Virus record (IMG/VR): IMGVR_UViG_3300028805_000045
Source: a virus
Taxonomy: Duplodnaviria; Heunggongvirae; Uroviricota; Caudoviricetes
Strand: one strand, 5' to 3'
DNA length: 64,000 nt
Position numbers and translations under genes: made by a program. The notes beneath the pieces are model-generated. The model searched no databases. It had not been told where the DNA came from and was given only the letters and a program-made list of their open reading frames with translations. Positions 42,974 to 61,985 of this stretch are shown here, in pieces (position 1 is the stretch's first letter; every line of letters starts with the position of its first letter).

Positions 42974-43152
42974 ATGGTAAAATTTGACATATATGTCAAA
43001 TTCTGGAAGTGATGTATAAATTTGGAAGAAGTATAAAAATTAGATAAGTAATTATTTGACAAAAGTGGAAATTAGATGTATAACATCTAAAATTAGTTGT
43101 TGACTTTTTTATATTTCTGTATTATAATACTATTGAAAGTGAGGGATGAAGA

Positions 43153-43344
43153 ATGTGGGATTCTGAAAACATTATCTGGACTGTATCATGGAAAAAGAAA
43201 GAAAAGGGAAAGTCTTATTTTTGCTATGGCGCAAGAAGTTTTTCAAATCCGCGAGAAGCACGAGGTTTTGCTAAATATCTTATGACTAAACCTGAAATGT
43301 TTGGCATAATCATTAGCTCAAAAGAAGAATGGCGAAAAGAATAA
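43153..43344 (+). CDS. Cassette hypothetical protein
   Basis: Promoter TTGACT at 43100, RBS, terminator, bounded by palindromes. Confidence 0.7.
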   Translation: MWDSENIIWTVSWKKKEKGKSYFCYGARSFSNPREARGFAKYLMTKPEMFGIIISSKEEWRKE

Positions 43345-43455
43345 GCGGCAATAAGCCGCATTATAAGTTTAGATGTTAAACATCTAAAAACTTGTATTGA
43401 CTTTTATTTTATTATGTGCTATACTCTTATTGTAAAAGCAAGGAGGGATTTGGAA

Positions 43456-43869
43456 ATGATGAATTATTATAGGGTAAAAGAAGAACTGTATTTTAATAAT
43501 GAAAAGATTGGCGTACAATATAGCCATACTATGAAGGATGAGGAACCTGAATTTGATACTGAATTATATAGCGGTGCTGATTTGTTACAGAGTATCAAAG
43601 ACACTGGACATCTGCCGGGAAAGTTTCTTGGGCTCGCAAGTTGGGAAGCGCGTCTTTTTCATCGCAATCAATATGTATTGCGCGGTTGGGGCATTGGTTT
43701 TAATGGAATAAGCCGCAACTTAAATAAAAATGATATTATTGTTTATACAATTAAATATACAGAAGAAACTCCCTCTATAAAAGAAATCTTACAATATTCA
43801 GACGGTATGAAAGCTATTCAATGGTTGAAAGATAGAGGAATGACAACTTGTCCACTGAATCCGCAATAA
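43456..43869 (+). CDS. Cassette hypothetical protein
   Basis: AGGAGG RBS; TAA in hairpin loop. Confidence 0.7.
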   Translation: MMNYYRVKEELYFNNEKIGVQYSHTMKDEEPEFDTELYSGADLLQSIKDTGHLPGKFLGLASWEARLFHRNQYVLRGWGIGFNGISRNLNKNDIIVYTIKYTEETPSIKEILQYSDGMKAIQWLKDRGMTTCPLNPQ

Positions 43870-43967
43870 TGCGGATTTTATTATTTAGATGTTTAACATC
43901 TAAAAGTTGAACTTGACTTTTTAATATAATATGATATAATGCTATTGAAAGGAAGGGAGGAATTAAA

Positions 43968-44240
43968 ATGTTTAACTTCTTCAAAATGGAATCTTGGGAA
44001 CGCAAAGAATATATTGCGGACTGGTTTGGCTTGAAGTCTTGGTCGCATTTTTTCTACGCGGCGCGCGTTCTTCCTAAATTTAGACCGCACATTCATGGAT
44101 ACGTTTATGATTGGGCGGAAGAAAAAATTAAACCCGCTTATTGGATAAAAGACAAAAACGGTTCTATTATTCCTTGGGCACATTTTGACAAGAGTACTGT
44201 TATGTGTACTACAATGGATGATTGGTTAAACCATGTATAA
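43968..44240 (+). CDS. Cassette hypothetical protein (Trp-rich)
   Basis: Promoter at 43913, GGAGG RBS. Confidence 0.7.
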   Translation: MFNFFKMESWERKEYIADWFGLKSWSHFFYAARVLPKFRPHIHGYVYDWAEEKIKPAYWIKDKNGSIIPWAHFDKSTVMCTTMDDWLNHV

Positions 44241-44312
44241 TTAAAATAAGGCGGTTTAACCGCCTTTTATAATTAGATGTTTAACATCTAAAAAAAATAA
44301 AGGTAGTTAAAA

Positions 44313-44561
44313 CTACCTATACATAAGGGAAAGAAAATAGCAATTCAATACAACGCTGGCGACGTGAATCATAATATCATTACAATGGCGTTGCTGATTG
44401 GTAAAATCTTTAATAATACCAACCACGGCAATGCCAAGGCCAAACCACGATGCGGAAAACCCAAACAACATTACAAGCGCAACATTCAGAATCATGCCGA
44501 GCGCGCGGAGATCGTTCCACTCAAAGCGATATGCGGTTTCTACATTGAAAAACTTTTTCAT
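44313..44561 (-). CDS. Cassette membrane protein
   Basis: Hydrophobic segments; ends at TAG within terminator hairpin. Confidence 0.65.
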   Translation of the reverse strand: MKKFFNVETAYRFEWNDLRALGMILNVALVMLFGFSASWFGLGIAVVGIIKDFTNQQRHCNDIMIHVASVVLNCYFLSLMYR

Positions 44562-44764
44562 TCCACTTCTTCCTCCACTTCTTCATCATAGCTACTATAA
44601 AGAATATCATACAGGGCAGTATCAATTTTATTCAGTTCCTTATAAAAGTAAGGCAGTAAATCTTTGACTTTTTCGCCTGCGTCTTGAAGGAATCTGCGGA
44701 ATTCTTCAATCTTTTTTGCTTCTTCGCGTGTCCAACTAACTTCGATTTTTTTACTAATATTCAT
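44558..44764 (-). CDS. Cassette hypothetical protein
   Basis: Leader hairpin plus CCAGAAAGG RBS. Confidence 0.65.
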   Translation of the reverse strand: MNISKKIEVSWTREEAKKIEEFRRFLQDAGEKVKDLLPYFYKELNKIDTALYDILYSSYDEEVEEEVE

Positions 44765-44886
44765 TTCTCAATTTCCTTTCTGGTTTGTAGTGTGTCCTTC
44801 ACTTTTCACTAAGAGTATAACACAATTTTTATTATAAGTCAAATAAAAAATATAGATGTTTAACATCTAAATATAAAAGAGTTAGA

Positions 44887-45078
44887 TCACTCTAACTCTT
44901 TTATTTCTTCCAAACTGTCGCAATGTGAAAAATTATATACTTCATCCCAAAAGAAATTTTTATTACATTTAGGGCAGTATCCTTCCCAAGTTTCATAATA
45001 GTAGTCACCTTCATTTTGAGTGCGACAGCATTCAGTATATTCCAATTCTTCGTTACAATACGGGCATTTCGGTGGCAT
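44887..45078 (-). CDS. Cassette zinc-ribbon protein
   Basis: CPYC..CPKC. Confidence 0.6.
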   Translation of the reverse strand: MPPKCPYCNEELEYTECCRTQNEGDYYYETWEGYCPKCNKNFFWDEVYNFSHCDSLEEIKELE

Positions 45079-45289
45079 ATTATTCTTCCCCCTTTTATTC
45101 ACAATCAAATTCTACAATTTCATTATTAAGAGTAATACATTTAACACATGCTTGTGACCATTTTGCTTGTTTATTGAGTTTATAGGCATAGCGTTCTGCT
45201 TGTTCTCTATTTTTACTAATTGCAATGGGATGAGCGTAGTCACTAATGTAATATACCACATACAATTTCATTCTTTATCATACCTTTCT

Positions 45290-45514
45290 TTATTGATTTT
45301 CTTGGGCGGCGATTTCTCCCGCCAGATAGCCTTCTCCGTATCCCTTCATAAACATAGCATCATACATATCAAACTCATGAAGGGAAAATTTTTTGTCCGG
45401 AAAGAGATAGGCAAGATAGTGAAGCATTTCTATACTATACTTTCTTTCTATTACTTCCCATGGATAAAATTTTTTTATCCTTCTCACCATCTGTGTTACT
45501 TTGTAGTAAATCAT
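45290..45514 (-). CDS. Cassette hypothetical protein
   Basis: 74 aa, ATGA overlap with upstream gene. Confidence 0.55.
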   Translation of the reverse strand: MIYYKVTQMVRRIKKFYPWEVIERKYSIEMLHYLAYLFPDKKFSLHEFDMYDAMFMKGYGEGYLAGEIAAQENQ

Positions 45515-45666
45515 TCTTTATCCCATCCTTTCTTATGCTTCGGCTTCTTGTTGCGCTTGTCGGGAATCACTTTGGTCACGGGGCTGATAGTGCCCCAATC
45601 TTTACGCATAGCGCGATAGATTTCATAGTTGGAACGGGGTTTAGTTTTAGATTTTTTCTTGCTCAT
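45511..45666 (-). CDS. Small very basic protein (51 aa)
   Basis: MSKKKSKTKPRSNYEIYRAMRKDWGTISPVTKVIPDKRNKKPKHKKGWDKE; AGGAGGG RBS. Confidence 0.65.
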   Translation of the reverse strand: MSKKKSKTKPRSNYEIYRAMRKDWGTISPVTKVIPDKRNKKPKHKKGWDKE

Positions 45667-45761
45667 TTCTTTTCCCTCCTGACAATAGCATTATACTATA
45701 TAATTGGAATGAAGTCAAGATTGAAAGTTAGATGTTAAACATCTAAAATAGAAATGGGAGG

Positions 45762-46040
45762 TTAGCCCTCCCAAACTTCTTCTTCCCAAAAAGCAAACAT
45801 ACCTTCAAAATAATCATTAAATTCTGTTATAGTCCAAGAGCAAATAATATCAAGCCAGTTCGGCCCTAATTTTTCTGAAATTGTAGGGCAGTCCCAAGTT
45901 TTTTTCTGAAAATTATATTCGCTAAGTTCAAATTCTTCGTTTAGCCAATTCATTTGATATAGGTATTTAACCGCGGATTTATAGTCTTTTGCGACGCCAA
46001 GGAATCCATGGCTTTCTTCATTTATTACAATAACAGTCAT
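45762..46040 (-). CDS. Cassette hypothetical protein
   Basis: Promoter, leader hairpin, stop in terminator loop. Confidence 0.7.
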   Translation of the reverse strand: MTVIVINEESHGFLGVAKDYKSAVKYLYQMNWLNEEFELSEYNFQKKTWDCPTISEKLGPNWLDIICSWTITEFNDYFEGMFAFWEEEVWEG

Positions 46041-46159
46041 TTTCAATCCTTTCTGGTTTTTAGTTGTTTTCCTTCAACTTTCATATAGAATATACCATAA
46101 GTTTATATAAAAGTCAAGATTGAAAATTAGATGTTTAACATCTAACAGAAGAAGGACGA

Positions 46160-46429
46160 TTACTCGTCCTTACATCCTACGACAAGTTGATTACCGACTT
46201 CCTGGGAGTCAATCGGAGAACCGCAGTAATATATCGTCAGACCTCTCTCAGAAATTTCACTGATAAGGTCATTAATTTTATCGGTATATTCCGCGATAAG
46301 CAGTTCCCGTGTTGCACGAGCGCGTCGTTCCGTTTCCTGGGGAATCGCATTGAGCAGGAGCGCGAGTTCATAATCGCTAAGGCTTTCCAAATCAATTCCA
46401 TGACTTGCCATCATTTTTACAAAATTCAT
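46160..46429 (-). CDS. Cassette hypothetical protein
   Basis: Promoter, leader hairpin, stop in terminator loop. Confidence 0.7.
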   Translation of the reverse strand: MNFVKMMASHGIDLESLSDYELALLLNAIPQETERRARATRELLIAEYTDKINDLISEISERGLTIYYCGSPIDSQEVGNQLVVGCKDE

Positions 46430-46551
46430 CTTAATATCCTTTCTGGTTTTTAAGTCTTTCCTTGACTTCTTACAGATAGAGTATAACATAAATTTTATTA
46501 TAAGTCAATATTAAATTTTAGATGTTAAACATCTAACAAAAGAAAGGGGAT

Positions 46552-46923
46552 TTATTCCCCTTTTTCTTCTTCCTTCTTTTTCTTTTCTTCCCGCGCTTTC
46601 TTATCACGGGCAATTTTCGCTTCTTTGGCCTTGGCCTTCTCGACCTTGGCGGCCTGCTTCTCGTTGTAAGCGTCAATTTCAGACTGCATCAGTTCGCGGG
46701 CGGTCATGTCCTCGCGTTCCTCGGCAACAATGACGCCAACACGGCAATAGCGCTCAACGCCGTTTTTATCGGTCAGAATGACGCCATACTGACGGTCGTT
46801 GATTTTAACATAATCTTCGCGGGGATTATCAAAATCAACTTCGGTGGGAGGGTCGAGAATGAGATCAGCAAACACTTGGGCGCGCAGGTCGGCATCCACA
46901 ACATTCTTAGAAATCTTAGCCAT
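46552..46923 (-). CDS. Cassette protein with Lys/Ala/Glu-rich C-terminal tail (family B)
   Basis: MAKISKN..AAKVEKAKAKEAK; GC-rich codons. Confidence 0.75.
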   Translation of the reverse strand: MAKISKNVVDADLRAQVFADLILDPPTEVDFDNPREDYVKINDRQYGVILTDKNGVERYCRVGVIVAEEREDMTARELMQSEIDAYNEKQAAKVEKAKAKEAKIARDKKAREEKKKKEEEKGE

Positions 46924-47054
46924 AATCAAGCCACCTTTCTGGTTTTTAAGTGTTGTTCCTTCACTTGATGGGTATAGTATAGCATAAGTGAAGGAAGAAG
47001 TCAAGAAGTTATTTTAGATGTTTAACATCTAAATTGTAGAAAGGGCGTTAGCCC

Positions 47055-47267
47055 TTACTGTACAGTTAAGGTCTCTACAAGATATTGGCCGCAATTGGTA
47101 TATACTATCATATCCCCTAAACTATTAGGGCGGCGAAAATATTCATGCTCGCCCACCTCAAAGAAAGAGGGAATGGCTTCAAGTGCTTTTTCGGGAGAAG
47201 TGTATGCTCCTAAGTTTGTAGAACATCCAGTGTTATCTTCCCAGAAGAAAATTACAAATACTTTCAT
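47055..47267 (-). CDS. Cassette hypothetical protein
   Basis: MKVFVIF..GAYTSPEKA. Confidence 0.65.
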   Translation of the reverse strand: MKVFVIFFWEDNTGCSTNLGAYTSPEKALEAIPSFFEVGEHEYFRRPNSLGDMIVYTNCGQYLVETLTVQ

Positions 47268-47368
47268 TTTAGCACTTCCTTTCTTTTTTCTATATAAATT
47301 ATATCATAACTTTTGAAATTTGTCAATTTTCAAATTTAGATGTTTAACATCTAAACAAAAAAAGTGGG

Positions 47369-47599
47369 TTATTCACCCACAATTGCTTCGGTTAAGTCCA
47401 TCCAGTCGTGATAGGTCGTAATAATTTTAACTTCATCAGGTTCAAACGTGCCGCCGCAACAACCGCAAATAACGAAAAGAAGTTTGGGTTCCTCATTTTC
47501 GTTTTCTTGCTCGTATGCCGCAATCCCGCCCAGAATTTCCTGTTCTTCTTCGGGAAGCGTATTGTCTACAAATTTAACTTGCTTATAAAATCCTACCAT
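47369..47599 (-). CDS. Cassette hypothetical protein
   Basis: VICGCCGG motif. Confidence 0.7.
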   Translation of the reverse strand: MVGFYKQVKFVDNTLPEEEQEILGGIAAYEQENENEEPKLLFVICGCCGGTFEPDEVKIITTYHDWMDLTEAIVGE

Positions 47600-47712
47600 T
47601 TAGAATCACTCCTTTCTTTTTACATACATATTATATCATGCTGTTTGAAATTTGTCAAACTTAAAAATTAGATGTTAAACATCTAAATTGAAAGGATAGA
47701 AAAAATGGGAGA

Positions 47713-48702
47713 TTACTCTCCCATATACGCCATCACGGAAAAGATTTTATTTTCAATCTTTCTGTAATATGCTGTTCCTTCTTCTTTCGTGTTAAGATGA
47801 GCACGAAGGACAGAAACAACTTTTTCACATTCAGAAATATCAGGATACTTGCGGCGCTTTACAAAGTCCACGGTCTCTCCAAGTTCACGGAAAGGGAAAA
47901 AGCTGATGCCGATTTCAATAGCATGACGGGCGGCAATTTTAGAAAGAATGAAGGTCTCAATCATTGCGTCATCGAGCGCGGTATGACTTTCTACAAAGTC
48001 ATATTTATTTACCAAATACTGGTAAGAGGTTTCGGCGCTGGTTTTGAAGTAAAGGCCGGAAGCGGAAAGCAAGTCATGATTTAAGCATTCTTTTTTATAA
48101 GAAACATTGTTCAAAAGGATTTTTGCGGCAAGGCCCCAAAGGTCAAACAGGGGGAAATCTTCGCCGCGAAACTTGAAGCAATCGGCATCAAATTCTTTTT
48201 CGGGGTCTTTACGGTATTTTTCATTTGCGATTCGTGCACACAACAGGCGCTGAACCTGTTCCCACCGTTGATAGTCCGGGCTATACAGTTTCCGGATATA
48301 CAATTCAGTAAAGGGGATAGCTTTCTTGAAATCAAACATGGAATTAAACGCGCCCACCGCGTCAACCGTGCGCAGGTCAGCAAGGAACAATTCCATAATT
48401 TCATCCCAGGTTTTAATGACGGTTTCGCCGCGCTTGAGCATCTCCAGATACCGGGGCCGCTTTTCAGCATAATATGCAGTATTAAACACGGCGGGCACGC
48501 AGAAAGTTTCAGCCACCAGGAATTGCTTGCTGTCCAGGATTTCGCCCTTGCGGTTGGTAATAGTCCAGCCGATGTCATACACGAGAGGCCGGGCGATGGC
48601 AATTTTCTTTTTCTTTTCGGGGTCATCGTTGGCAATTTCATTAGCGAAGGGCAGGGTCGCGGTTTCGGTGTCTACTACCATGTAGGTCAGTTTTTTACTC
48701 AT
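47713..48702 (-). CDS. DEDDh 3'-5' exonuclease-family protein
   Basis: VVDTET, AFNSMFD, HTALDDA. Confidence 0.8.
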   Translation of the reverse strand: MSKKLTYMVVDTETATLPFANEIANDDPEKKKKIAIARPLVYDIGWTITNRKGEILDSKQFLVAETFCVPAVFNTAYYAEKRPRYLEMLKRGETVIKTWDEIMELFLADLRTVDAVGAFNSMFDFKKAIPFTELYIRKLYSPDYQRWEQVQRLLCARIANEKYRKDPEKEFDADCFKFRGEDFPLFDLWGLAAKILLNNVSYKKECLNHDLLSASGLYFKTSAETSYQYLVNKYDFVESHTALDDAMIETFILSKIAARHAIEIGISFFPFRELGETVDFVKRRKYPDISECEKVVSVLRAHLNTKEEGTAYYRKIENKIFSVMAYMGE

Positions 48703-48832
48703 CCAGTTAATCCCTTTCTGGTTTCAAGTGTTTTCCTTCACTTCATGTATAGAGTATATCATGGAATAGATAAAAAGTCAACAAAGAGATTTAGATGTTA
48801 AACATCTAAATAAAGAAAAGCGGCAAAGCCGC

Positions 48833-49132
48833 TTAATCATCATTAGTCAATTCAACTTCATAGAGATATTCGTTATTACAGTGGATGGAAAAGGCGGGGT
48901 CTTCTGAATCGGAATCCCAATAGAAGTCAATAGTATATCCTGCCGCGACCGCATCAGAAATTGCCTTACGAATATTATTAAAATATTCATCCTTCTTTTC
49001 TTCCTTGCGGCGATGCTGTTCTTTGCATACGTCTAAAAGAATATTGTTCAATTGTTCATCACTTGCGGAATGGAGCATCTGGCACAGATAACCATGATTG
49101 AAGGGGGTGAAGTCGTGATTACGTTCTTTCAT
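48833..49132 (-). CDS. Cassette hypothetical protein
   Basis: Promoter, RBS, terminator. Confidence 0.65.
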   Translation of the reverse strand: MKERNHDFTPFNHGYLCQMLHSASDEQLNNILLDVCKEQHRRKEEKKDEYFNNIRKAISDAVAAGYTIDFYWDSDSEDPAFSIHCNNEYLYEVELTNDD

Positions 49133-49243
49133 TCTAAGCACTTCCTTTCTTTTTATGTATAGAGTATAGCATACATTTATAAAAAAGTCAATCTTAAAAT
49201 TTAGATGTTAAACATCTAAAAGTAAAATAAAAAAGAAAGGGGC

Positions 49244-49588
49244 TTATGCCCCTTCCTTCATGCGGTAGGAATTGACCTTGCCTTCAATCTTTTCCACCGC
49301 GTCAGTCCAGTAGTGGGTCAGGCCATAACCGACCTGATTCTTAGTGAAGCCTTCGGGCAGTCCCTTTTCGCATTCTGCGAAGATCTCCGCGACAGTCGCG
49401 GGCTTCCCGGCAATCCGCAACGCTTCCAGAACCGCGGGCTTTGCGGCGGCGTACATGGCTTCTTTTTCCGCCTTTACGCGGTCATTGCGGTGAAGTTCTT
49501 TTTCAAGGGCTTCCATCACGGCGGGCTTGTTCTCGAAGTCAACAGTGTTCAGAGCGGTGTAAATGGTGTTCATGATTTCCTTAGTCAT
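49244..49588 (-). CDS. Putative winged-helix DNA-binding protein (family A)
   Basis: KPATVAEI..LPEGFTKNQVGYGL..W..VEKIEGKVNSY; paralog of 52613 and 56442. Confidence 0.65.
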   Translation of the reverse strand: MTKEIMNTIYTALNTVDFENKPAVMEALEKELHRNDRVKAEKEAMYAAAKPAVLEALRIAGKPATVAEIFAECEKGLPEGFTKNQVGYGLTHYWTDAVEKIEGKVNSYRMKEGA

Positions 49589-49691
49589 ATTAGTTCCCTT
49601 TCTGGTTTTTGAGAGTTTTCCTTCTCTTTTTCTTACATCCTTATTGTAGCACAGGATTTGCTTTTTGTCAAGAAGAAATTTTGTTAAGTTT

Positions 49692-49797
49692 TTGTTACAA
49701 GGGAGGAGTGGTTGTCACACGAGCGGCCGAAGGTGTGACGTTCTCGTTATCAAGAGAACACTCTTACTTTTTCCGTTTGCTCTCTCCCTTGGAACAA
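49692..49797 (-). ncRNA. Putative structured small RNA A
   Basis: Own promoter, no credible ORF; 5' UUGUUCCAAGGGAG pairs with 3' CUCCCUUGUAACAA; two internal hairpins. Confidence 0.55.
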
Positions 49798-49880
49798 TTA
49801 TATATTACCACATTTTTAGAAAGAAGTCAACATTTGAGTTTAGATGTTAAACATCTAAGTAAAATAACCCGCTATGCGGG

Positions 49881-50135
49881 TTAATAGTCAATATCAATAT
49901 AAACAGTCTCACCCAATAGATAAGGGGCCTCTTTTAGAATCACCTGTGAAATAAGGATTTCTTCTTCGTTATAATCTTCATATTCTTCAGGAGGAATCAT
50001 ATAGAGTCCGATGGAACATTCAGGCCCAGGGGTATACTGTTCATTGAAATCGCCTTCAATGTTTTTTCCAAATTGCTTTCTAATTTGGTCAAATACTTCG
50101 CGGCCCTCTACATGTGTCCAAGTAGTAAACTTCAT
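49881..50135 (-). CDS. Cassette hypothetical protein
   Basis: MKFTTW..; promoter and terminator. Confidence 0.65.
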   Translation of the reverse strand: MKFTTWTHVEGREVFDQIRKQFGKNIEGDFNEQYTPGPECSIGLYMIPPEEYEDYNEEEILISQVILKEAPYLLGETVYIDIDY

Positions 50136-50235
50136 AAATCCACTTCCTTTCTTTTGATGGATATAGTATAACATAATAATATTGAAAAGTCAACTAATAA
50201 ATTTAGATGTTAAACATCTAAGTAAAAAAGGAGGA

Positions 50236-50565: not shown

Positions 50566-50669
50566 AATTTATACTTCCTTTCCGGTTTTTAAGAGTTTTC
50601 CTTCTCTTGATTACGCATTTATTATATCATGGATTTTGAAGTTTGTCAAGAAGAAATTTTGTTAAATTT

Positions 50670-50788: not shown

Positions 50789-50912
50789 CTTATATAATAT
50801 CACAAATTTAGAAAGAAGTCAATAATTGATTTTAGATGTTTAACATCTAAAAGAAGGGGTTGCGTTTTCAAGTATTTTATGTTATAATGTAACCGTAATA
50901 AAGAAAGGGGTT

Positions 50913-51410
50913 ATGAAAATGAAAACTGATTACACTGTACGCGCTCAAAAGTTTTTGGATGAAATCTTCCCGGTGATCGAAAAGTCTTTGGATGACCCCT
51001 ATGATTTGGCTGATGCGCTGTTTGACTATTGCGCGAAAAATCACAAGCGGGTGAATGTTCGGAACGGTGTTTCTCGCTGGGCCATTATTCATTCCGACTA
51101 TGTAATTAAATATGATTATAATGAGGAATGTTGGGTTGGAAATTGCCCCAACGAAGTGGATAAGTATGCGCAAGCAGAAAAAGATGGCTTTGCCTATCTG
51201 TTTGCCAAAATCACCCCGGTAGTTTCTCATAATATTACTTTTTATGTTATGCCCCGTGTTAAAAACATTGGGCGTCACAAGAGTTTGATAAGAGCGCTTA
51301 CAAATGAAGAATGGGATTACGTTTGGAGCATAACAGATGATCTGCACTGTAATAATTATGGTTGGGAAAATGATAAGCCTGTTATTATTGACTATGCCTG
51401 TGACCCGTAA
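50913..51410 (+). CDS. Minimal protein-kinase-like fold protein
   Basis: GVSR, VIKY, E..Y, VMPRV, DLH.NNYG, IIDY motifs. Confidence 0.65.
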   Translation: MKMKTDYTVRAQKFLDEIFPVIEKSLDDPYDLADALFDYCAKNHKRVNVRNGVSRWAIIHSDYVIKYDYNEECWVGNCPNEVDKYAQAEKDGFAYLFAKITPVVSHNITFYVMPRVKNIGRHKSLIRALTNEEWDYVWSITDDLHCNNYGWENDKPVIIDYACDP

Positions 51411-51457
51411 GGGTCTTTTATATTTAGATGTTTAACATCTAAATAAAGAAAGCGCGG

Positions 51458-52612: not shown

Positions 52613-52936
52613 TTACGCCCTCTTGTATTCGTTGACCTTGCCCTCGATCTTGACGACCTCGGCGGCCCACAGTTCCCGCAAGGCGTACTGCACCTTGCTC
52701 TTGGTCATGCCCTCGGGGACAGTGCTCTTCACGGCTTCCCACAGTTCCGCAAGCGTCACGGGCTTGTCGGTCAGGGCGCCGATAACCACTTCATGGGCGG
52801 CGGCGTACAGGTTACGATTGGCCTGGGCCTTTTCGGCGTTCTTGTCCAGTTCGGCCTGAAGTTCGGCATATTCGGCGGCGAGTTCGGGCACGTTCTTGAT
52901 GTAGTTAGCGATAGCGGCCATAGTGTTCCTCTTCAT
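52613..52936 (-). CDS. Putative winged-helix DNA-binding protein (family A)
   Basis: KPVTLAEL..VPEGMTKSKVQYAL..W..VVKIEGKVNEY. Confidence 0.65.
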   Translation of the reverse strand: MKRNTMAAIANYIKNVPELAAEYAELQAELDKNAEKAQANRNLYAAAHEVVIGALTDKPVTLAELWEAVKSTVPEGMTKSKVQYALRELWAAEVVKIEGKVNEYKRA

Positions 52937-54378: not shown

Positions 54379-54473
54379 AATTTTTCCTTTCTGGTGTTAA
54401 GGATTTTCCTTTCCTTTTACACATTGATTATAGCACAGAATTTAGAGACTGTCAAGTGGTTTTTATTAAGAAT

Positions 54474-54564
54474 TGGGAAAGGTTGGAGTCGAACCAACAT
54501 CAAGGGCATTCAATCGCTCTATCCCTTCACGCGATCAAGCTCTGACCAATTGAGCTACTTTCCC
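54474..54564 (-). tRNA. tRNA-like RNA with non-canonical anticodon region (isotype undetermined)
   Basis: Acceptor GGGAAAG/CUUUCCC+A, D arm GCUC-AAUUGGUCA-GAGC, T arm GUUGG-UUCGACU-CCAAC; no 7-nt anticodon loop. Confidence 0.65.
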
Positions 54565-54566
54565 AT

Positions 54567-54731
54567 ATTGTTCCAAGAGAAGGAATTGTTAAGAAATTTC
54601 GATGGTCTTTCTCGCATTTCTTCCCATCGTCAAGAGCAAAGGGTTTCTGTCGTCCACGATGTTGTTTCTGTTTGCCCGCTCTTTCATTAACAAACGCGGT
54701 GGCCTTTCGCTTTCCCTTCCCTTGGAACAAT
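54567..54731 (-). ncRNA. Putative structured small RNA D, directly 5' of the tRNA-like element
   Basis: 17-bp terminal stem AUUGUUCCAAGGGAAGG / CCUUCUCUUGGAACAAU. Confidence 0.55.
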
Positions 54732-54806
54732 TAAAGTATATCATAATTTTAGAATAAAGTCAATAATTAGATTTAGATGTTTAACATCTAAATAATAAAA
54801 GGGTGA

Positions 54807-55259
54807 TTACTCACCCCTTAGAAGTTCTTTCAGAACTTCCAAAATCTGGTTAGGTTCATACGCTTCACCTTTCCATTCTTCACGGTTCGGCGCTTCATCG
54901 TCAAACAGAATATCATCTTCATTTTCCATGAAGGAGGATTTAGGCGTGCCATAGGCCACGATGCGGATGGCATCCCAGCTTACCGACCGCAAGTGTTTTT
55001 TCAGCCATACCAGCTTTGCGGCGGTCACAGCTTCGTCATATTCGGGGGTAGGGCACTTGGAAAGCCAGCTAATAATTCCAATCTGATACCCAGCTTCCTG
55101 CAAGCGGTTCAGATAGCGGGCGAGCAGACTCATATTCAGCATGACTTCGGCTTCCGCATAGGGCGTAGGGTCATAGGCGCGAAGCATAGAAAGCCAACCG
55201 TCAACCGCGTACAGATTGCCCAAAGTGCCATCCATGTCAAACCAAATAGTTTTCATCAT
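54807..55259 (-). CDS. HAD-superfamily phosphatase (5'(3')-deoxyribonucleotidase-like)
   Basis: FDMDGT, K..WL..H, ILFDD motifs. Confidence 0.75.
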   Translation of the reverse strand: MMKTIWFDMDGTLGNLYAVDGWLSMLRAYDPTPYAEAEVMLNMSLLARYLNRLQEAGYQIGIISWLSKCPTPEYDEAVTAAKLVWLKKHLRSVSWDAIRIVAYGTPKSSFMENEDDILFDDEAPNREEWKGEAYEPNQILEVLKELLRGE

Positions 55260-55364
55260 TCATCCCTTCCTTTCTTACGGGTATAGTATACCATAGAATA
55301 AAGAAGAAGTCAAGAATTGAATTTAGATGTTTAACATCTAAAATAGTAAGGCGACAAGTCGCCT

Positions 55365-55679
55365 TTAAGGACATTCAGTACACAGAATAATATTGGAAGA
55401 ATGTGTCAAATATGTGATTCCATCCATAGTAAATTGAATCATATCAGATTCGCTGAAATCTTTCCAAGAAGTGATGGTTCCTTCAATTAGTTCACCGTTT
55501 CCTAATTGAAGAATACCCCAGTTATAACGCCAATTGGTGTCAATGACTTGTTCATTACCATTGAATATAATATTTCTTGTATTTTTTACTAAGAATACAC
55601 CGCCAAGGATAATGACAAGTACGAGGGTGACAGCAACACTAATGAAGATCACGGGATGGTCACTGAAAAAATCGAACAT
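55365..55679 (-). CDS. Membrane-anchored cassette protein
   Basis: N-terminal TM; GNEQVIDT..SWKDF..YLTHSSN. Confidence 0.7.
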   Translation of the reverse strand: MFDFFSDHPVIFISVAVTLVLVIILGGVFLVKNTRNIIFNGNEQVIDTNWRYNWGILQLGNGELIEGTITSWKDFSESDMIQFTMDGITYLTHSSNIILCTECP

Positions 55680-55807
55680 AGCTTTTCCTTTCTGGTTTTT
55701 GGGATTTTCCTTTCCCTTTCGTTCTTACAATAGGATTATAGCATAAGAAAATGAAATTGTCAATTCTATAAGTTAGATGTTTAACATCTAAATAAAATGG
55801 GGAAGCC

Positions 55808-55996
55808 TTAATGGCTTGCCCACAATAAAGTAATTAGAACAATCAAAACGATGAGGACGAAGCTAATCCAAAGCGGGGACAGAACCCAAAGCCAAGACCA
55901 CGTGATGACATTGCACAGTTTAAGGACAATAAAGGCGATAGTCAGAAGTCCGCAGAATCCGATGCCGCCGCGAGTGTTATTTCCATTATTTTTCAT
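55808..55996 (-). CDS. Small two-TM membrane protein
   Basis: GIGFCGLLTIAFIVLKL.VI.WSWLWVLSPLWI. Confidence 0.75.
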   Translation of the reverse strand: MKNNGNNTRGGIGFCGLLTIAFIVLKLCNVITWSWLWVLSPLWISFVLIVLIVLITLLWASH

Positions 55997-56121
55997 CTTA
56001 GTTTCCCTTCTGGTTTGTGATGTTTTCCTTCATCTTTCTTACATGAATATTATAACATAAAAAATTAAAAAGTCAATATTTATAATTAGATGTTTAACAT
56101 CTAAAATAATAAAGCGCGGCA

Positions 56122-56295
56122 TTAGCGCCGCGTGAAGTCAATGATAAATTCTTTTGTTTCAAGGTCTAAGCAGAGAACGCCAGTACATTCTTTATCTTGA
56201 AGATAAATTGCGGCAGTAGCAAAAACAGTTGTAATGTCATTGCAAGTTTCTGCCTTGGTGAACCCATCATCATACATAGTGGTCAGAACGTACAT
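56122..56295 (-). CDS. Cassette hypothetical protein
   Basis: AAGGAG RBS, MYVLTT.. Confidence 0.6.
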   Translation of the reverse strand: MYVLTTMYDDGFTKAETCNDITTVFATAAIYLQDKECTGVLCLDLETKEFIIDFTRR

Positions 56296-56441
56296 ACTTA
56301 AATCTCCTTTCGGGAATTTCATTCCCTATCTTTTTTACAAGTAAATTATATCATCTTAGAAATAAAATGTCAAGTCTTAAAATTAGATGTTTAACATCTA
56401 ATTCTAAAATAAAAGAAAACCGCCCCGAAGGGCGGTTCGTA

Positions 56442-56777
56442 TTACTTGCGCCGATACTGGTTCGGCTTGCCTTCAATCTTAACCACTTCATCCTTCCAGT
56501 AGTTAAGAAGGCCATACTGTACCTTGTTCTTGGTGGTGCCGTCCGGCAGTTCGCTTTCACAAGCGGTAAAGATTTCCGCGACCGTCATAGGCTTGTCACC
56601 GAGGTGCGCCATCACTACATCGTGAATGGTTTCATAGGTGTCCAGCTTGGCAGAAGCCTTTTCAGCCTGCTTGGCGAAGTCATCTTCCAGCTCGCGGATG
56701 ACGGCCAGTTTGTCCGCTTCGTCAGTATTCGCGCCGGTCAGGATAGCATAGATAGTCTTGATGGTAGCATTCTTCAT
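56442..56777 (-). CDS. Putative winged-helix DNA-binding protein (family A)
   Basis: KPMTVAEI..LPDGTTKNKVQYGL..W..VVKIEGKPNQY. Confidence 0.65.
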   Translation of the reverse strand: MKNATIKTIYAILTGANTDEADKLAVIRELEDDFAKQAEKASAKLDTYETIHDVVMAHLGDKPMTVAEIFTACESELPDGTTKNKVQYGLLNYWKDEVVKIEGKPNQYRRK

Positions 56778-56912
56778 AATTCGTTCTCCCTTTCTGGTTT
56801 GGTGGGTTTTCCTTCCCTTGATTACGGGTATAGTATATCATGGATTTGAAAAAAGGTCAAGTATTTGTTTTAGATGTTTAACATCTAAAAGTAAAAAACA
56901 GGCAAAAGCCTG

Positions 56913-57287
56913 TTAGTTTTCCCATGGTGTCATATCTTCATTAAGACAATGAAGATAATAAGCAAGTTCTTTGGCATCGTGAACGCTTACATCATCACCA
57001 TCCCACGGAAAGCCAATGGTTTCCCAAGGGCCAGTTTGGCTCCAATTATTCTGATTGGTGGTCTTAGGATAAAAACACGGAGCATAGTTAGGGCTGCCAT
57101 AGCTACCATCATGGCAAATAGCGTCACCCGTATGTCCTTTGAAGGTTACGCGCCAACCATTTTCATAATGCTGAACTTTGTCAAGTTCAATGTGCCAGTC
57201 ACGGCAAGCATTAACAAGGTCAACCAGAGCATTGATGTAAGCCGCATCAATCTGTTTAGGGGTAAATTCAGAGTAGTTAGTCATCAT
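56913..57287 (-). CDS. Cassette hypothetical protein
   Basis: GDAICHDGSYG..ETIGFPWD. Confidence 0.7.
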   Translation of the reverse strand: MMTNYSEFTPKQIDAAYINALVDLVNACRDWHIELDKVQHYENGWRVTFKGHTGDAICHDGSYGSPNYAPCFYPKTTNQNNWSQTGPWETIGFPWDGDDVSVHDAKELAYYLHCLNEDMTPWEN

Positions 57288-57387
57288 TCTCGTCTCCTTT
57301 CAATTTCTGTATATATAATATCATATTGAATTTATTTTGTCAATATAAATATTTAGATGTTTAACATCTAAAATAGAAATTTGGGCA

Positions 57388-57690
57388 TTACGCCCAAATT
57401 GTTTTTCCATTTACTGTATATTTGCTTTCATTTTTATATACTTTCTTTTTAAGGAATGGAGGTATTTTTTTATCTCCCCCGTATACTTTCATCAGCTCGT
57501 GAACAGTTGTGACATAAATTGTGATAGTGTCCAGCTTGTTTGCGCTTTTGATGATAGTGATTCCAGTGTCGGTGATGCAAGTCCAGCGCTGGTGAATGAA
57601 TGCTTCCTTAATTACTTGCCCCATACCAATTTCTGCGACAATGTGCGCGACCCGTTCGGCTCGTTCTACTTCGCAATGGTAACTCATCAT
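57388..57690 (-). CDS. Cassette hypothetical protein
   Basis: Promoter, RBS, stop in terminator loop. Confidence 0.7.
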   Translation of the reverse strand: MMSYHCEVERAERVAHIVAEIGMGQVIKEAFIHQRWTCITDTGITIIKSANKLDTITIYVTTVHELMKVYGGDKKIPPFLKKKVYKNESKYTVNGKTIWA

Positions 57691-57790
57691 GGTTTCTTCC
57701 CTCCCTTTCTTTTATGGCTATATTATAGCACAAAGAAAAGGAAAAAGCAATAGCGGACTTTAGATGTTTAACATCTAAATAATTAACCCC

Positions 57791-58036
57791 TCATTCGAGG
57801 GGTGTAAGAGCAAGTAGTTTAACATCATTTGGAACATCACTATCAATATAAGTTGCCTTGCGGCTCTCGGACTCAAATTCTACCATGATCGCGCCCGTGG
57901 TTCCATCCATTACATCAGTGGAGAAGCCGTGGCTTTCTGTAATGGCACGAGCCTTGAATACGGCGGCCCAAAGAGACTGAAAAAAATAATTATAGGTAAT
58001 AGGCTTATTATTTTGCCAATAAGTAACGTGATACAT
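57791..58036 (-). CDS. Cassette hypothetical protein
   Basis: Promoter, GGAGG RBS. Confidence 0.7.
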   Translation of the reverse strand: MYHVTYWQNNKPITYNYFFQSLWAAVFKARAITESHGFSTDVMDGTTGAIMVEFESESRKATYIDSDVPNDVKLLALTPLE

Positions 58037-58985: not shown

Positions 58986-59135
58986 TCACTGTTTAGCGAC
59001 CCAATTTTCCGCGGCACGTTTGGATTTGAAACGCTTTACGACTTCGGCAGAAATGGTCTCTCCGGAAAAGTTTCGGGCAACTTTCCACACGTTCCAAGTT
59101 TTAGTAAAGAAATTGAAATTGATTTCAAATGTCAT
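58986..59135 (-). CDS. Cassette small protein (49 aa)
   Basis: MTFEINFNFFTKTWNVWK..; GGAGG RBS. Confidence 0.6.
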   Translation of the reverse strand: MTFEINFNFFTKTWNVWKVARNFSGETISAEVVKRFKSKRAAENWVAKQ

Positions 59136-59258
59136 TTTTTCTGCCTCCGTTTCGGGATTTACTATCCCTTTTCTTTTTTACAATTAAATTTTATCACTTA
59201 AAAATGAAATTGTCAAGAGATAATTTTAGATGTTTGACATCTAAATTGGAAAGCGTGC

Positions 59259-59330
59259 TTATCGCATGCACGCTTTGGCCATTCCAACTGTTACAATAAC
59301 GCCAACAATAATGAAAAGAACTATATCCAT
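59259..59330 (-). CDS. Hydrophobic micropeptide (23 aa)
   Basis: MDIVLFIIVGVIVTVGMAKACMR; sole ORF of a full cassette with promoter, AAGGAAG RBS and terminator. Confidence 0.55.
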   Translation of the reverse strand: MDIVLFIIVGVIVTVGMAKACMR

Positions 59331-59481
59331 TAGTTACACTTCCTTTCTTTTTTGTAATTATATTGTAACATAATGTAATAAAAAAGTCAATAAAATAATT
59401 TAGATGTTTAACATCTAAAAAGCAATATTGATTTTCAAAATGAGATATGATATACTATAAGCATGAAAGGGGTGCAAAATT

Positions 59482-59883
59482 ATGGAAATTCGCTTGGCTA
59501 ATAAAAATGATATTTCTAAAGTAAATTTAATTCTGAAATCATATAATATTTCTTATATTACAATAGAGCACTTTCGGGAAGATGTAAGACTTAATCGTCA
59601 ATTTATCATGACAGAAAACGAAAATATCATTGCTATATTATCTCTTGTGTATGATAATCAATATAATTATTATGCTATGAAACGCCTTCTTGTTACTAAT
59701 GAATATAAGGGAAAGGGATATGCACGTATTATGTTAAATTATGTAAGTCAAAAGGCACAAGGTAAAGTTGGCTGTACTCCATGGACTAATAATGCCGCAA
59801 TGCGTCATTTATTAGAAACGCTTAATTTTCATCTTGAATATATATTTGATAATAAGTGGTGTTATTATGTTAAGCAAGTCTAA
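59482..59883 (+). CDS. GNAT-family acetyltransferase
   Basis: MEIRLA..RLLV..EYKGKGYA..N.AM..L.E.LNF. Confidence 0.75.
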   Translation: MEIRLANKNDISKVNLILKSYNISYITIEHFREDVRLNRQFIMTENENIIAILSLVYDNQYNYYAMKRLLVTNEYKGKGYARIMLNYVSQKAQGKVGCTPWTNNAAMRHLLETLNFHLEYIFDNKWCYYVKQV

Positions 59884-59931
59884 CTTGCTTAGTGTACTTA
59901 GATGTTGAACATCTAAAATATAAAGGGAGGA

Positions 59932-60165
59932 TTATTCCTCCCGAGATAATAAATCTTCCTCTGTCATTCCAATCATTTCAGTGATAAATTCAGTGTTATA
60001 GGCAAAGAAATCATTTAAGATAGTTTCGTCAATACCTTCGGGATAAATGCATTCCAATTCGTACTCAATCGCGGTGAGTTCATCTTCAGTAAACAGTTTT
60101 ACTATCTGTCTTGCCCTTCCCCAAAATTCAAAGTCTTTCAAGGTGATTTCTTTTTTGATAGTCAT
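59932..60165 (-). CDS. Cassette hypothetical protein
   Basis: DFEFWG.A..YPEGIDET.LNDFF. Confidence 0.7.
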   Translation of the reverse strand: MTIKKEITLKDFEFWGRARQIVKLFTEDELTAIEYELECIYPEGIDETILNDFFAYNTEFITEMIGMTEEDLLSREE

Positions 60166-60283
60166 TGTTTTGCCCTCCTCTTTTTGTCCTTTCCCTTTGG
60201 ACAAGTATATATTATCATAAATTAAAGAAAAAAGCAAGTATTTTTTTTAGATGTTAAACATCTAAATTAAAAAGGTTTATTGC

Positions 60284-60598
60284 TTAGCAATAAACCAAGG
60301 ACATATTTGACCATTTGAGAATAGAGATTTGATTGTGCTCTTTTCCAATTTTTAGCGCCTCTTTTTTAGTGCTGATCCGCATAGAGTGGTCAACATAGTA
60401 AATGCCATCACTGTACCACACGCCGCAATTACCTTTCATTTTTTGAACCGCTTCAATAGCTTCTTTTATTGTGCGGCATTCTGTGCCATAATCTGCGACC
60501 TGCCACCCTGTTTTATAAGTGATGATTTTGTTGCTTTTCATGGTAAAGCCGTCGTTATTCTTGAGATTTTCAAAATAGGTTTTGATGTCGTTGTTCAT
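60284..60598 (-). CDS. Cassette hypothetical protein
   Basis: DGFT..GWQVA..GVW..YVD.S..NQISI..W. Confidence 0.7.
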   Translation of the reverse strand: MNNDIKTYFENLKNNDGFTMKSNKIITYKTGWQVADYGTECRTIKEAIEAVQKMKGNCGVWYSDGIYYVDHSMRISTKKEALKIGKEHNQISILKWSNMSLVYC

Positions 60599-60699
60599 TG
60601 TCTTAATCCCCTTTCCTTATCTTCAAGTGTATTATAGCACATATATTTTTTAATGTCAATAATGATTTTTAGATGTTAAACATCTAAAAAAATAAGGGA

Positions 60700-60903
60700 T
60701 TATGTATTTTCCCTTAAAAGCGCTCGACGCGCTTCTATAAATTGGGTATGAAGTTTATCTAACCGGGCAACAAGTTCCATCATCTCTCTTTCAGTGAGAG
60801 AAGTGGTGTCCGCTTTTTCGGCAAGCACCTGCGCCCGCGGATCATGATGGCGAACATAGTTAGAGAAAGCAACGGCGATTTCGTGGGTGTTAGTAGTGGT
60901 CAT
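60700..60903 (-). CDS. Cassette hypothetical protein
   Basis: Promoter, RBS. Confidence 0.6.
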   Translation of the reverse strand: MTTTNTHEIAVAFSNYVRHHDPRAQVLAEKADTTSLTEREMMELVARLDKLHTQFIEARRALLRENT

Positions 60904-61018
60904 GGTTTTATCCCCCTTTTTAATATCTTGTCCCTTCGGACAATTATATTATACTACAATATAATATTTCTGTCTATACTTTTTTTAGATGTTAAACATC
61001 TAAGATTCTAAAGGACGC

Positions 61019-61297
61019 TTACGCGTCCCAGTCCCGAATTTCACCGGTGTTAAGATTTACGTCATAGTTATCATACAATAACTGTTTTGCAAGCTGATAA
61101 TTATATCCAAGCATTTTCATAAACCATCCGATATGTTTGATTGTGGTCATGCTATACAGACCATTGATGTGTAACCATCCATCTTGGCTAACTGTGATTA
61201 CAACCGTGTTGTAACTAATCAGTTCAAAAGAACCATCTTCATAGTAGTTGATGCGCGCCGCGGCCTTCTCGTGTCCCTGGAATTTCTTGCTTGTCAT
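61019..61297 (-). CDS. Cassette hypothetical protein
   Basis: LISYNT.V..YSMTT.KHI. Confidence 0.7.
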   Translation of the reverse strand: MTSKKFQGHEKAAARINYYEDGSFELISYNTVVITVSQDGWLHINGLYSMTTIKHIGWFMKMLGYNYQLAKQLLYDNYDVNLNTGEIRDWDA

Positions 61298-61424
61298 TGT
61301 TTTTACCCTCTTTCTTTCTTTTCTTGTCCTTCGGACAAGTATATATTATCATAGATTAGCATATATGTCAATGGATTGTTTTAGATGTTAAACATCTAAA
61401 TATGACTTTCAGCTTAAATAAAGT

Positions 61425-61481
61425 CCAGCTCGTCTCGTGCCTTACATTCCAGCTTCCAGCTTGTCCAGCTTTTTCCAGCTT
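61425..61481 (+). repeat. Cluster of 5 CCAGCT motifs
   Basis: At 61425, 61449, 61456, 61465, 61475. Confidence 0.65.
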
Positions 61482-61985
61482 GCCTGCGCGTATATAAGCC
61501 ACTGGATGGCGCAGGCGGCGCACGGCTGAGCGTGGCGACCCTCGACCAATTCTGACAATGTAGGATCTGGTCGCCAGATTTGACAATGGCGAACTTGGAA
61601 CCAGAATTGACATTTGTTACGGAATTGTTACGATTGTAACATTTTTGTAACATCTTCCTCCCCTCCTCTTGTGTATATTGTACCACAGCCGGCCCGAATT
61701 GTCAATTTTTTGGCTTAGATGTTTAACATCTAAACCAGATTATACATTTTTTTGACCAAATTTTACATCAATTTATTACGAAAATATTAAAATTGTAACA
61801 TTTTTGTAACATATGAATACATGCTCATATGTTGATTGTATACATGTATACATTTATACAGATATACTAAAATACTTATATAATTATATAATTGTATACA
61901 ATTATACTGATATATAATCAATTACATTTTTGTATATATGTTTTTGTGTATACAATATGATACAATTATATTTTATTCAATACAA

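Follow-up and report, generated by a model that had tools for sequence, protein, structure and literature searches.

The locus described here raises the question of what one short palindrome does when it recurs 41 times along a phage genome, at the border of one small gene cassette after another. It lies in a window (the whole stretch of 64,000 nucleotides that was analyzed) that corresponds to bases 17571-81570 of the 141,343-base virus record IMGVR_UViG_3300028805_000045, from an uncultured phage of the ruminant gut. On balance, we consider it probable that the palindrome has two roles, being the shared operator of one temporal class of early sigmaA-type promoters and also the crossover point at which cassettes are gained, lost, replaced and inverted. 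The array and its sites are as follows.

43072..61733, no strand assigned: palindrome array, 41 sites bounding 40 cassettes (from the site count and the whole-record search)
Site starts 1-14: 43072, 43369, 43885, 44273, 44852, 45728, 46127, 46518, 47014, 47336, 47668, 48791, 49201, 49840
Site starts 15-28: 50203, 50832, 51424, 52000, 52570, 53208, 54086, 54773, 55323, 55773, 56086, 56383, 56870, 57353
Site starts 29-41: 57760, 58105, 58354, 58620, 58952, 59226, 59400, 59898, 60247, 60669, 60985, 61381, 61715

The site has the form TTAGATGT-N3-ACATCTAA, a 19-bp palindrome of 9-1-9 symmetry (first bases TTAG, last bases CTAA) in which 14 of the 19 bases are A or T and the 8-bp arms are perfect in 37 of the 41 copies. 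With up to two mismatches allowed, TTAGATGTTWAACATCTAA was matched 41 times between 43072 and 61733 of the window, 37 times exactly and four times with one change (copies starting at 43072, 44852, 59226 and 59898), while the chance expectation is 0.01 and none of 100 shuffles attained 41. The initial annotation, which had counted about 41 near-identical sites over 18.7 kb, four of them with one change, and had noticed none elsewhere in the window, was therefore accurate, and its spacing of about 170-1,120 bp agrees with the 174-1123 bp measured from start to start of adjacent palindromes. A search of the whole 141,343-base record returned the same 41 sites and none besides, with a count of zero for the reversed-pattern control.

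The cassettes between these sites are built on one plan. Read with transcription, the 35 minus-strand intervals show first the G+C-rich hairpin and T-run that close the preceding cassette, next the palindrome and then, after 9 bp, the -35 box; the predicted terminator hairpin with its T-run directly adjoins the next palindrome, and the 9 bases between palindrome and -35 are A/T-rich and not conserved. The promoters have a -35 of TTGACT or TTGACA, a 17-bp spacer and a TATAAT-like -10, and the -10 is followed by a leader that often has a hairpin at its 5' end, and this by a ribosome-binding site and a single small open reading frame (ORF). At 36 of the 41 sites, 38 promoters scoring at least 9 of 12 were found, and the palindrome is offset from them by 9 bp in 36 cases and by 8 bp in two. 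Sites 50832 and 59400 have promoters on both sides, sites 44273, 51424 and 59898 have terminators on either side and no promoter, the promoter of site 52000 is about 62 nt distant, and that of site 60247 is weaker. Most of the 40 intervals hold one ORF with a ribosome-binding site, the exceptions being one with two ORFs, one with four, and one with an ORF and a tRNA-Ser. These data bear out the proposal that nearly each interval is one complete unit. Two stretches illustrate the plan.

46451..46536, minus strand: example regulatory unit (palindrome 46518-46536, 9 bp, -35 TTGACT, 17 bp, -10 TATACT)
43072..44291, plus strand: three cassettes with promoters to the right of 43072, 43369 and 43885, ending at the promoter-less convergence palindrome 44273

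In the example unit, a leader hairpin is followed by AAACCAGAAAGG ahead of the start codon, and in related arrays the convergence point equivalent to 44273 retains perfect half-sites. As an observation on the leaders themselves, AAACCAGAAAGG stands directly 5' of the start codon in 15 array cassettes (window 44775-56800; 0.27 expected), usually preceded by a small hairpin with an AAGGA-type loop. Contigs from RNA libraries that are identical to the window span at least eight cassettes, which does not show transcription.

The same arrangement was found in related phages. The exact palindrome occurs at 113 loci on 23 contigs of IMG/VR, and five long relatives, collinear with the genome of the window at 65-89% nucleotide identity, each carry 32-36 sites in a single array of about 18 kb (control counts, 0). 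Across 14 arrays, both 8-bp arms are invariant, and the central three bases and all flanks vary; the centre triplets include TTA, TAA, TAT, ATA, TCA, TGA, TTG, CTA and others and, when oriented to the promoter, TAA (182), TTA (93) and ATA (38) show only a 2:1 bias. The 469 sites of these arrays have 441 adjacent promoters scoring at least 9 of 12, with an offset of 9 in 365 cases, 8 in 28 and 10 in 13, while the same scoring at 4200 random positions gave a flat distribution. In sister arrays (ACG-type, as distinct from the ATG-type described so far), a symmetric double change, TTAGACGT-N3-ACGTCTAA, is present in all copies, and the geometry is unchanged, with the same 9 bp at 17 of 18 sites of array L280. 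This variant was found at 119 viral loci, of which the first 80 listed lie on more than 30 contigs. Rarer symmetric variants were also seen, namely TTGGATGT...ACATCCAA at the array edge of genome G003 (91651-93020), which is otherwise ATG-type, and TTAGGTGT...ACACCTAA in the array of genome G005 (3831, 20011 and 20330, the oriented copy); half-site hybrids are also present inside otherwise ATG-type arrays, at the array edges.

The position of the palindrome after the T-run of the upstream terminator, and the fact that its symmetric variants keep pairing, would suit a role as an RNA hairpin in read-through transcripts, either as a processing site or as a back-up terminator. We find this scarcely credible, because the palindrome lies upstream of the promoter and downstream of the terminator and would be transcribed by read-through only, no U-run follows it, and half-site hybrids exist. 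Moreover, its stem is invariant, without the copy-by-copy covariation that a hairpin-only role would allow, and it matches no Rfam family.

The promoters of this phage fall into two classes. Within the array, the palindrome is attached to 34 of 41 strong promoters. The second class comprises about 20 host-type promoters with TTGACT, a 17-bp spacer ending TTATGa (a TGn extended -10) and TATAAT, none of which carries the palindrome; they precede the tRNAs, the NAD-salvage/TAG-free block and the helicase gene. Their positions in G000, one of the five genomes (G000-G004) used for whole-genome searches, and examples in the window are given below.

G000 1039-6803, 28136, 41120-57885 and 128242: palindrome-free promoters
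Window 23550, 24557, 32819, 35430, 38316 and 40315: palindrome-free promoters, examples

Since some 20 promoters lack the palindrome, it marks one promoter class and is most likely an operator for a dimeric protein. The fixed phase relative to the -35, the invariant arms, their joint change in the sister clades and the class specificity together point to a dimeric protein that recognizes this sequence and exerts its effect on the promoter. The idea of a master operator, put forward in the initial annotation, thus gains support from the fixed 9-bp spacing, the invariant half-sites around a varying centre, and the restriction to one of two promoter classes. A palindrome without any trans-acting reader, serving RNA polymerase itself as an upstream element (UP element) or forming a structural DNA cruciform, would account for the A/T-richness (14 of 19), the UP-element position and the fixed distance to the -35. 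Nevertheless, about 20 equally good promoters in the genome do without it, about 18 perfect copies persist without a promoter, an 8-bp A/T-rich stem with a 3-base loop makes a weak cruciform, and all copies in a genome change together to the ACG form, pointing to one reader; nor are UP elements known to be invariant palindromes. We therefore regard a function without a reader as very improbable.

As an operator, the palindrome might work as follows. A symmetric dimer would read the two half-sites, whose centres lie 11 bp, or one helical turn, apart. If transcription is assumed to start 7 nt past the -10, geometry would place the palindrome, relative to this unmapped start, at about -63 to -45 with its centre near -54, in the docking zone of the polymerase alpha subunits, and the bound protein could switch about 38 promoters together. 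The binder would most likely be phage-encoded, and a family of winged-helix proteins of about 110 amino acids is the best candidate. We favor, perhaps, collective shut-off of the early class over activation: the promoters are already near consensus, so that an activator seems unnecessary and shut-off likelier. In phage phi29, the p4 dimer bound upstream of the -35 represses the early promoters A2b and A2c via the polymerase alpha subunit, and by analogy a factor bound outside the core promoter can shut off consensus promoters. The likeness is that of a phage dimer upstream of the -35 of a strong early promoter, and the mechanism may be compared by analogy only; p4 has a handful of sites, as opposed to about 40 here, with another sequence and another protein family.

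We then consider the palindrome as a junction. Cassette families vary between arrays in presence, order and copy number. Between arrays G010 and G011, which are about 96% identical, there are two indels, and each amounts to one cassette, no more and no less. In either case, the single site has on its left the flank of the left junction and on its right that of the right junction, and the 19-bp palindrome is the only sequence common to the two junctions, which places the crossover inside the 19 bp. Between G012 and G008 (about 93% identical), replacements are bounded at -9/-10 and at +9 to +27 from the palindrome centre. A replacement was also found in a close relative of the window itself, and two cassettes inside the minus-strand block of the window are inverted.

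59917..60246, minus strand: cassette that is replaced in one close relative (59107-59916 and 60246-60687 are matched by a DNA contig of run X4, with 600 other bases between)
50832..51442, plus strand: inverted cassette, ORF 50913-51410, 165 amino acids (promoters on both sides of site 50832; terminators on both sides of promoter-less site 51424)
59400..59916, plus strand: inverted GNAT acetyltransferase cassette, ORF 59482-59883 (divergent promoters at 59400; promoter-less convergence at 59898)

The X4 contig, of goat-gut DNA, is 97% and 92% identical to the window on the two sides, and the swap runs exactly from palindrome to palindrome. Three gene families occur on both strands across the arrays, including both of these plus-strand cassettes; homologues of the cassette at 50832..51442 lie on the opposite strand in six other arrays, and those of the GNAT cassette in four. 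In one inverted pair (69% protein identity), the reverse-complement alignment spans palindrome to palindrome, from the terminator and gene through the leader and promoter to the 9-bp spacer, and the sequences further out on the two sides bear no relation to each other. The ends of homology blocks were also mapped for all ordered pairs of the 14 arrays, counting internal ends only. On the right, 223 of 385 ends (58%) lie at +8 to +25 from the palindrome centre, compared with 3.5% expected, and 101 lie at +9/+10; on the left, 59 of 391 lie at -12 to -8 (1% expected) and 181 are spread over the promoter and leader of the neighbor (-26 to -120). The precise indels and the inversion are the decisive junction evidence, stronger than the pile-up of block ends. 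Among the relatives compared, none is closer to the window itself than about 92% identity, so that the evidence of recent events comes from G010/G011, G012/G008 and the one X4 contig. The comparison of relatives that the initial annotation had called for has thus yielded gain, loss, replacement and inversion with breakpoints at the palindrome.

Crossovers of two recent indels inside 19 bp, an inversion from palindrome to palindrome and a superficial likeness to a cassette array are what a dedicated site-specific recombinase would also give, if it acted at the palindrome and excised and inserted cassettes as circles in the manner of an integron. The joints listed among Logan contigs connect repeated leaders through sides of only 20-33 nt and thus speak neither for nor against circles or inversions. 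The initial annotation had seen no recombinase gene in the window, and the whole-genome search extends this result: tyrosine recombinases (PF00589) were found in none of the five genomes G000-G004, with a positive control in 14 of 14 reference genomes, and serine recombinases (PF00239) likewise in none, with a positive control in 12 of 14. Two of the five genomes, both with terminal repeats, are rated 100% complete; the rating of a third is 93%. A homologue with the recombinase fold of YopR/MrpR was not found either, YopR of SPBc2 as query giving no match at E <=1 in the five genomes in a search run without a positive control for YopR. Besides, every cassette comes with a promoter of its own, set at a constant distance from the palindrome, which is needless for a pure recombination site, and left block ends are spread over the common promoter and leader (181 of 391), as homologous exchange gives. 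We therefore hold a dedicated recombinase to be quite improbable.

The absence of a recombinase from the five genomes means that the array is not an integron, and the label "integron-like" is not supported, on this ground and on those of the separate promoter of each cassette and the short perfect palindrome. The likeness consists in tandem single-gene cassettes that are delimited by a repeated symmetric site and vary in content among relatives. Integrons, however, have an intI integrase and cassettes that share one promoter, whereas here PF00589 was detected in none of the five genomes and there are 38 own promoters and own terminators. The attC site of integrons is a long imperfect inverted repeat with unpaired bases, carried on a bacterial chromosome or plasmid, in contrast to a perfect 19-bp palindrome in a phage. 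Three hallmarks of an integron, i.e., the integrase, promoter-less cassettes and an attC-type site, are thus lacking.

Crossover at the palindrome would instead proceed by short-homology recombination between identical 19-mers, helped on one side by the similar promoters and leaders. General phage or host functions would suffice, with no need for a dedicated recombinase; RuvC and RecJ are encoded by the phage. As the same 19 bp recur at about 40 places and read alike on both strands, two copies can pair either way, leading to deletion or duplication in one orientation or to inversion in the other, which explains the orphan palindromes at convergent terminators and the double-promoter sites of flipped cassettes. 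Co-infecting relatives could swap cassettes by exchange at the palindromes, and every recombination product would retain a functional promoter and terminator.

Among known systems, the promoter/stem-loop (PeSL) cassettes of T4-type phages, in which repeated promoter and stem-loop modules shuffle genes (Arbiol et al. 2010, PMC2839356; Comeau et al. 2014, PMC4122927, here as far as the sections on these modules go), come closest. In those sections, a hyperplastic region holds single genes of unknown function that are flanked by dozens of modules, each made of a strong host-type early promoter and a terminator stem-loop; close relatives show indels and replacements at the modules, and recombination between modules is proposed to shuffle self-sufficient genes. 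A strong sigma70-type promoter per module and indels and replacements at the modules of close relatives are present here too, as is an adjoining G+C-rich hairpin with T-run, a predicted terminator. The statement that the site resembles neither integron cassettes nor PeSL elements thus has to be revised, the PeSL cassettes being the closest known architecture. Several differences remain. The array contains in addition an invariant 19-bp palindrome, which keeps a constant distance of 9 bp to the -35 and is distinct from the G+C-rich terminator hairpin; its recent crossovers fall in 19 bp, compared with a conserved zone of about 100 bp in the PeSL sections cited; and its self-reverse-complementary site also yields inversions. 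The lineage is not T4-like either (DNA polymerase III alpha near that of SPbeta-like phages, DnaB, RecJ, TAG as a sense codon, Firmicute-like sigmaA signals).

The second comparison is with phage SPbeta, in which the SPBRE motif is repeated in about 10 early promoter regions and bound by the master repressor MrpR (Kohm et al. 2023, PMC10516654, in the part of that account concerned with the motif). The likeness, a short motif repeated in the promoter regions of early units, is an analogy of layout. According to the same part of the account, SPBRE is a 15-bp motif with about 10 sites, as against about 40 copies of a 19-bp palindrome here, and it serves lysogeny in a temperate phage, whereas here no integrase was found and the array has the look of a block for early lytic genes or host takeover; cassette shuffling is not mentioned in that part. 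An SPbeta palindrome that we examined is unlike the site of this phage. The array is a combination of PeSL-like shuffling modules with an SPBRE-like multi-copy master operator, and a member of neither group.

For the reader of the palindrome, the candidate is a family of about 110 amino acids (family 1), present in all 14 arrays with two to four copies each (38 ORFs in total) and with 179 homologues in metagenomes, none of them named. The window holds three paralogues.

49244..49588, minus strand: family-1 paralogue a, 114 amino acids, predicted winged helix, leader of about 200 nt
52613..52936, minus strand: family-1 paralogue b, 107 amino acids, the protein whose fold was modeled, candidate palindrome binder
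56442..56777, minus strand: family-1 paralogue c, 111 amino acids

The model of paralogue b (pLDDT 93.7) begins with a short helix, continues with one of 38 residues and ends in a winged helix at the C-terminus. In VIA-align, its residues 41-106 align with the DNA-binding domains of PerR, Zur and Fur (Z 9.5-8.3, root-mean-square deviation 1.5-2.1 A, about 62 residues), and the model also aligns to Z-alpha, MarR and IscR. Foldseek gave weak E-values (0.05-0.1), and the Atlas neighbors at 0.84-0.87, which belong to the HTH_24, MarR_2 or FaeA families, serve as leads only. Pfam returned no family above cut-off for family 1; no helix-turn-helix family was found by Pfam among 73 small proteins (E <=0.3) or by PHROGs among 48, and no regulator by Pfam among 109 other proteins of the genome. 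The homodimer prediction (ipSAE 0.05, the mark being 0.42) counts neither for nor against. In the ACG-type arrays, the most abundant family, of about 115 amino acids (45 ORFs in 35 loci), shares the layout of family 1 but differs from it in the recognition helix. The model predicts a separate reader family for each class of palindrome, and with only two classes the agreement is suggestive at best. From the modeled fold and its occurrence, family 1 may be proposed as the palindrome reader, although tentatively, and we would sooner doubt the assignment than rely on it. The leaders of the genes at 49244-49588 and 52613-52936 are unusually long (about 200 nt) and begin GTTCCAAGGGAGAG; the intergenic stretches 5' of the three family-1 genes are window 49589-49839, 52937-53207 and 56778-56869. 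The bins holding the two long leaders have the highest depth of RNA-library contigs, which is not an expression measure.

The reader might also be a protein of the host, in which case the palindrome would be the operator of a host transcription factor, e.g., a metal repressor of DtxR or Fur type, and the phage would sense or soak up this regulator. The DtxR/IdeR consensus is a 9-1-9 palindrome that starts TTAG and ends CTAA, which the 19-bp site resembles; the fold matches of family 1 are the DNA-binding domains of the Fur family, dimers of which read sites of this size; and the phage-encoded binder is a candidate only. On the other hand, the exact arm pair was found at 118 loci of 185,579 species genomes, where 139 (at 50% GC) or 507 (at 40% GC) are expected, and arrays occur only on small phage-like contigs of metagenome-assembled genomes labeled Acutalibacteraceae, Oscillospiraceae or Bacillota. 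This binning gives a weak hint that the host is probably a member of the Oscillospirales. Most sites at 12 single-site loci inspected lie inside ORFs, none of nine scanned flanking proteins is a metal-uptake or metal-regulator protein, and in five Oscillospirales-type metagenome-assembled genomes the counts outside phage contigs are not above the reversed-pattern control. Furthermore, two sister phage clades have symmetric variants in all copies, as expected for a co-evolving phage reader. Since the hosts are not identified and real operators are degenerate, the exact-match test is partial, and we keep a host operator as an unlikely explanation. In one Clostridium-labeled contig (L173, 68-86), an exact palindrome lies between the 3' end of a tRNA and a tyrosine-integrase gene, a single case that may be due to chance.

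Several points weigh against the view that the palindrome is both an operator and a crossover point, or against family 1 as its reader. Centred near -54, outside the core promoter, the site occupies a position that is classical for an activator and not for a repressor. About 18 promoter-less palindromes at convergent terminators have perfect half-sites in all 14 arrays, which speaks against a pure promoter-operator role; they hint at a role beyond promoters, which might be to block passing transcription, to allow cooperative binding along the array, or one that is selected for the sake of recombination itself. Binding of the palindrome by a protein is a prediction from sequence. On the side of recombination, 19 bp is short for the RecA-type homologous route, and a protein-assisted or replication-slippage route is possible; and because the palindrome is the last sequence common to unrelated neighbors, part of the block-end pile-up is expected anyway. 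As for family 1, winged-helix Z-scores of 8-9.5 are near the level regarded as common for VIA-align, the family is absent from ACG-type arrays (none of 1070 ORFs), and its hhalign match to the ACG-type family is in register but weak (P 0.0013, probability 18%).

The cargo of the cassettes was examined with Pfam, PHROGs and Rfam, and the genes recognized are listed here with the most widespread family.

54473-54565, minus strand: tRNA-Ser, anticodon TGA, within a cassette (tRNA and Rfam scans)
54807..55259, minus strand: deoxyribonucleotidase-like (HAD-like) gene (phrog_2643, E 1.7e-10; common to ACG-type arrays)
47713..48702, minus strand: phrog_20187 family gene, 329 amino acids (paralogue at 53241-54038)

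Among 42 array proteins, only the GNAT acetyltransferase (59482-59883) scored above the curated Pfam cut-off (PF00583, E 6.5e-09). PHROGs added the 5'-3' deoxyribonucleotidase (HAD-like) at 54807-55259 and several further families of unknown function, of which the phrog_20187 family is the one most widely common to ATG-type and ACG-type arrays. The sole Rfam match in the array is the tRNA, which has a long variable arm; the array of genome G001 has the same tRNA. Of the diverse cargo listed in the initial annotation, the GNAT and HAD-like genes thus stood (by Pfam and PHROGs, respectively), the RNAs were reduced to the tRNA-Ser alone, the exonucleases correspond to hits at E about 0.1 only, and no kinase-like protein was seen among the array proteins. 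The array genes, almost all of unknown function, probably serve host takeover and anti-defense.

Other repeats were noticed at the ends of the array. The 8-mer TCCAGCTT has 17 copies in the window (1.8 expected), clustered at the two array ends.

42517..42973, plus strand: TCCAGCTT cluster, 8 copies, just outside the left end of the array
61448-61481: TCCAGCTT cluster, 4 copies, in the last cassette

This 8-mer may serve as a second repeat for protein binding, or else mark a boundary or an origin. The right end (window 61540-61660 and 61790-61815) has the short repeats TGACAAT (three copies) and ATTGTAACATTTTTGTAACAT (two copies), and beyond it a strongly A/T-rich stretch of 400 bases precedes the first plus-strand gene.

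Outside the array, and outside a TAG-free block (window 23000-40300), TAG is a sense codon in this phage. Readthrough of TAG doubles the summed length of long ORFs, gives rise to ORFs of 4729, 4329, 3059 and 2196 codons, and raises the coding coverage from 68% to 90%. The TAG-sense regions include window 1-23000 and 41176-42531 and G000 81000-124000, and a helicase-like gene (ResIII, 41176-42531) to the left of the array has 13 in-frame TAGs. Two complete relatives encode a tRNA with the anticodon CTA, an amber reader (G001 47569-47658 and G003 165546-165630), in clusters of 25-27 tRNAs; in the record of the window, which is cut inside its tRNA cluster, 13 tRNAs were seen, none with this anticodon. 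The ORFs of the array have no in-frame TAG and end in TAA (37), TGA (5) or TAG (1), so that the array follows the standard code throughout, which is what one would expect if its genes are expressed ahead of the code switch. According to Pfam, the rest of the genome encodes DNA polymerase III alpha, DnaB, RecJ, RuvC, NrdD, dUTPase, an NAD-salvage cluster, an amidase and tail-fiber-like proteins. Among proteins of cultured phages, YorL of the SPbeta-like Bacillus phages comes closest to the DNA polymerase III alpha (36-37% identity), and no GenBank phage was matched when the array and window 1-25000 were compared by megablast. The NAD-salvage genes lie in the TAG-free block (26691-39181) and include a PnuC-like transporter, an NAD synthase, a cytidylyltransferase-like protein of NadR/NadD type, a nicotinate phosphoribosyltransferase and an isochorismatase-type nicotinamidase.

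In the literature searched, we found no description of this element, and the phAss-1 paper, which deals with recoded phages of the gut that have DNA polymerase III, mentions neither "palindrom" nor "promoter". A single pair of palindrome and phage winged-helix dimer might clamp about 40 early promoters and, by pairing sites, also drive cassette turnover, although we think this unlikely. If true, such a dual-purpose pair, so far undescribed, would amount to a recombinase-free "phage integron" in which the specificity classes (ATG, ACG and rarer ones) define cassette-trading partners. The indels and inversions at the palindrome show the renewal of early genes without a recombinase, extending the PeSL idea beyond T4-type phages and adding inversion to it. 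The 19-bp tag is also a computational handle for early genes, promoters and their turnover, on 23 contigs in the form described here and on more than 30 in the ACG form. If one protein reads the tag, it would be a master switch of the early program and would form with it an orthogonal regulator-operator pair with natural specificity variants. The array is a standard-code early block in a large clade of uncultured phages of the gut for which TAG is a sense codon, and it would be the first DNA that the host polymerase reads.

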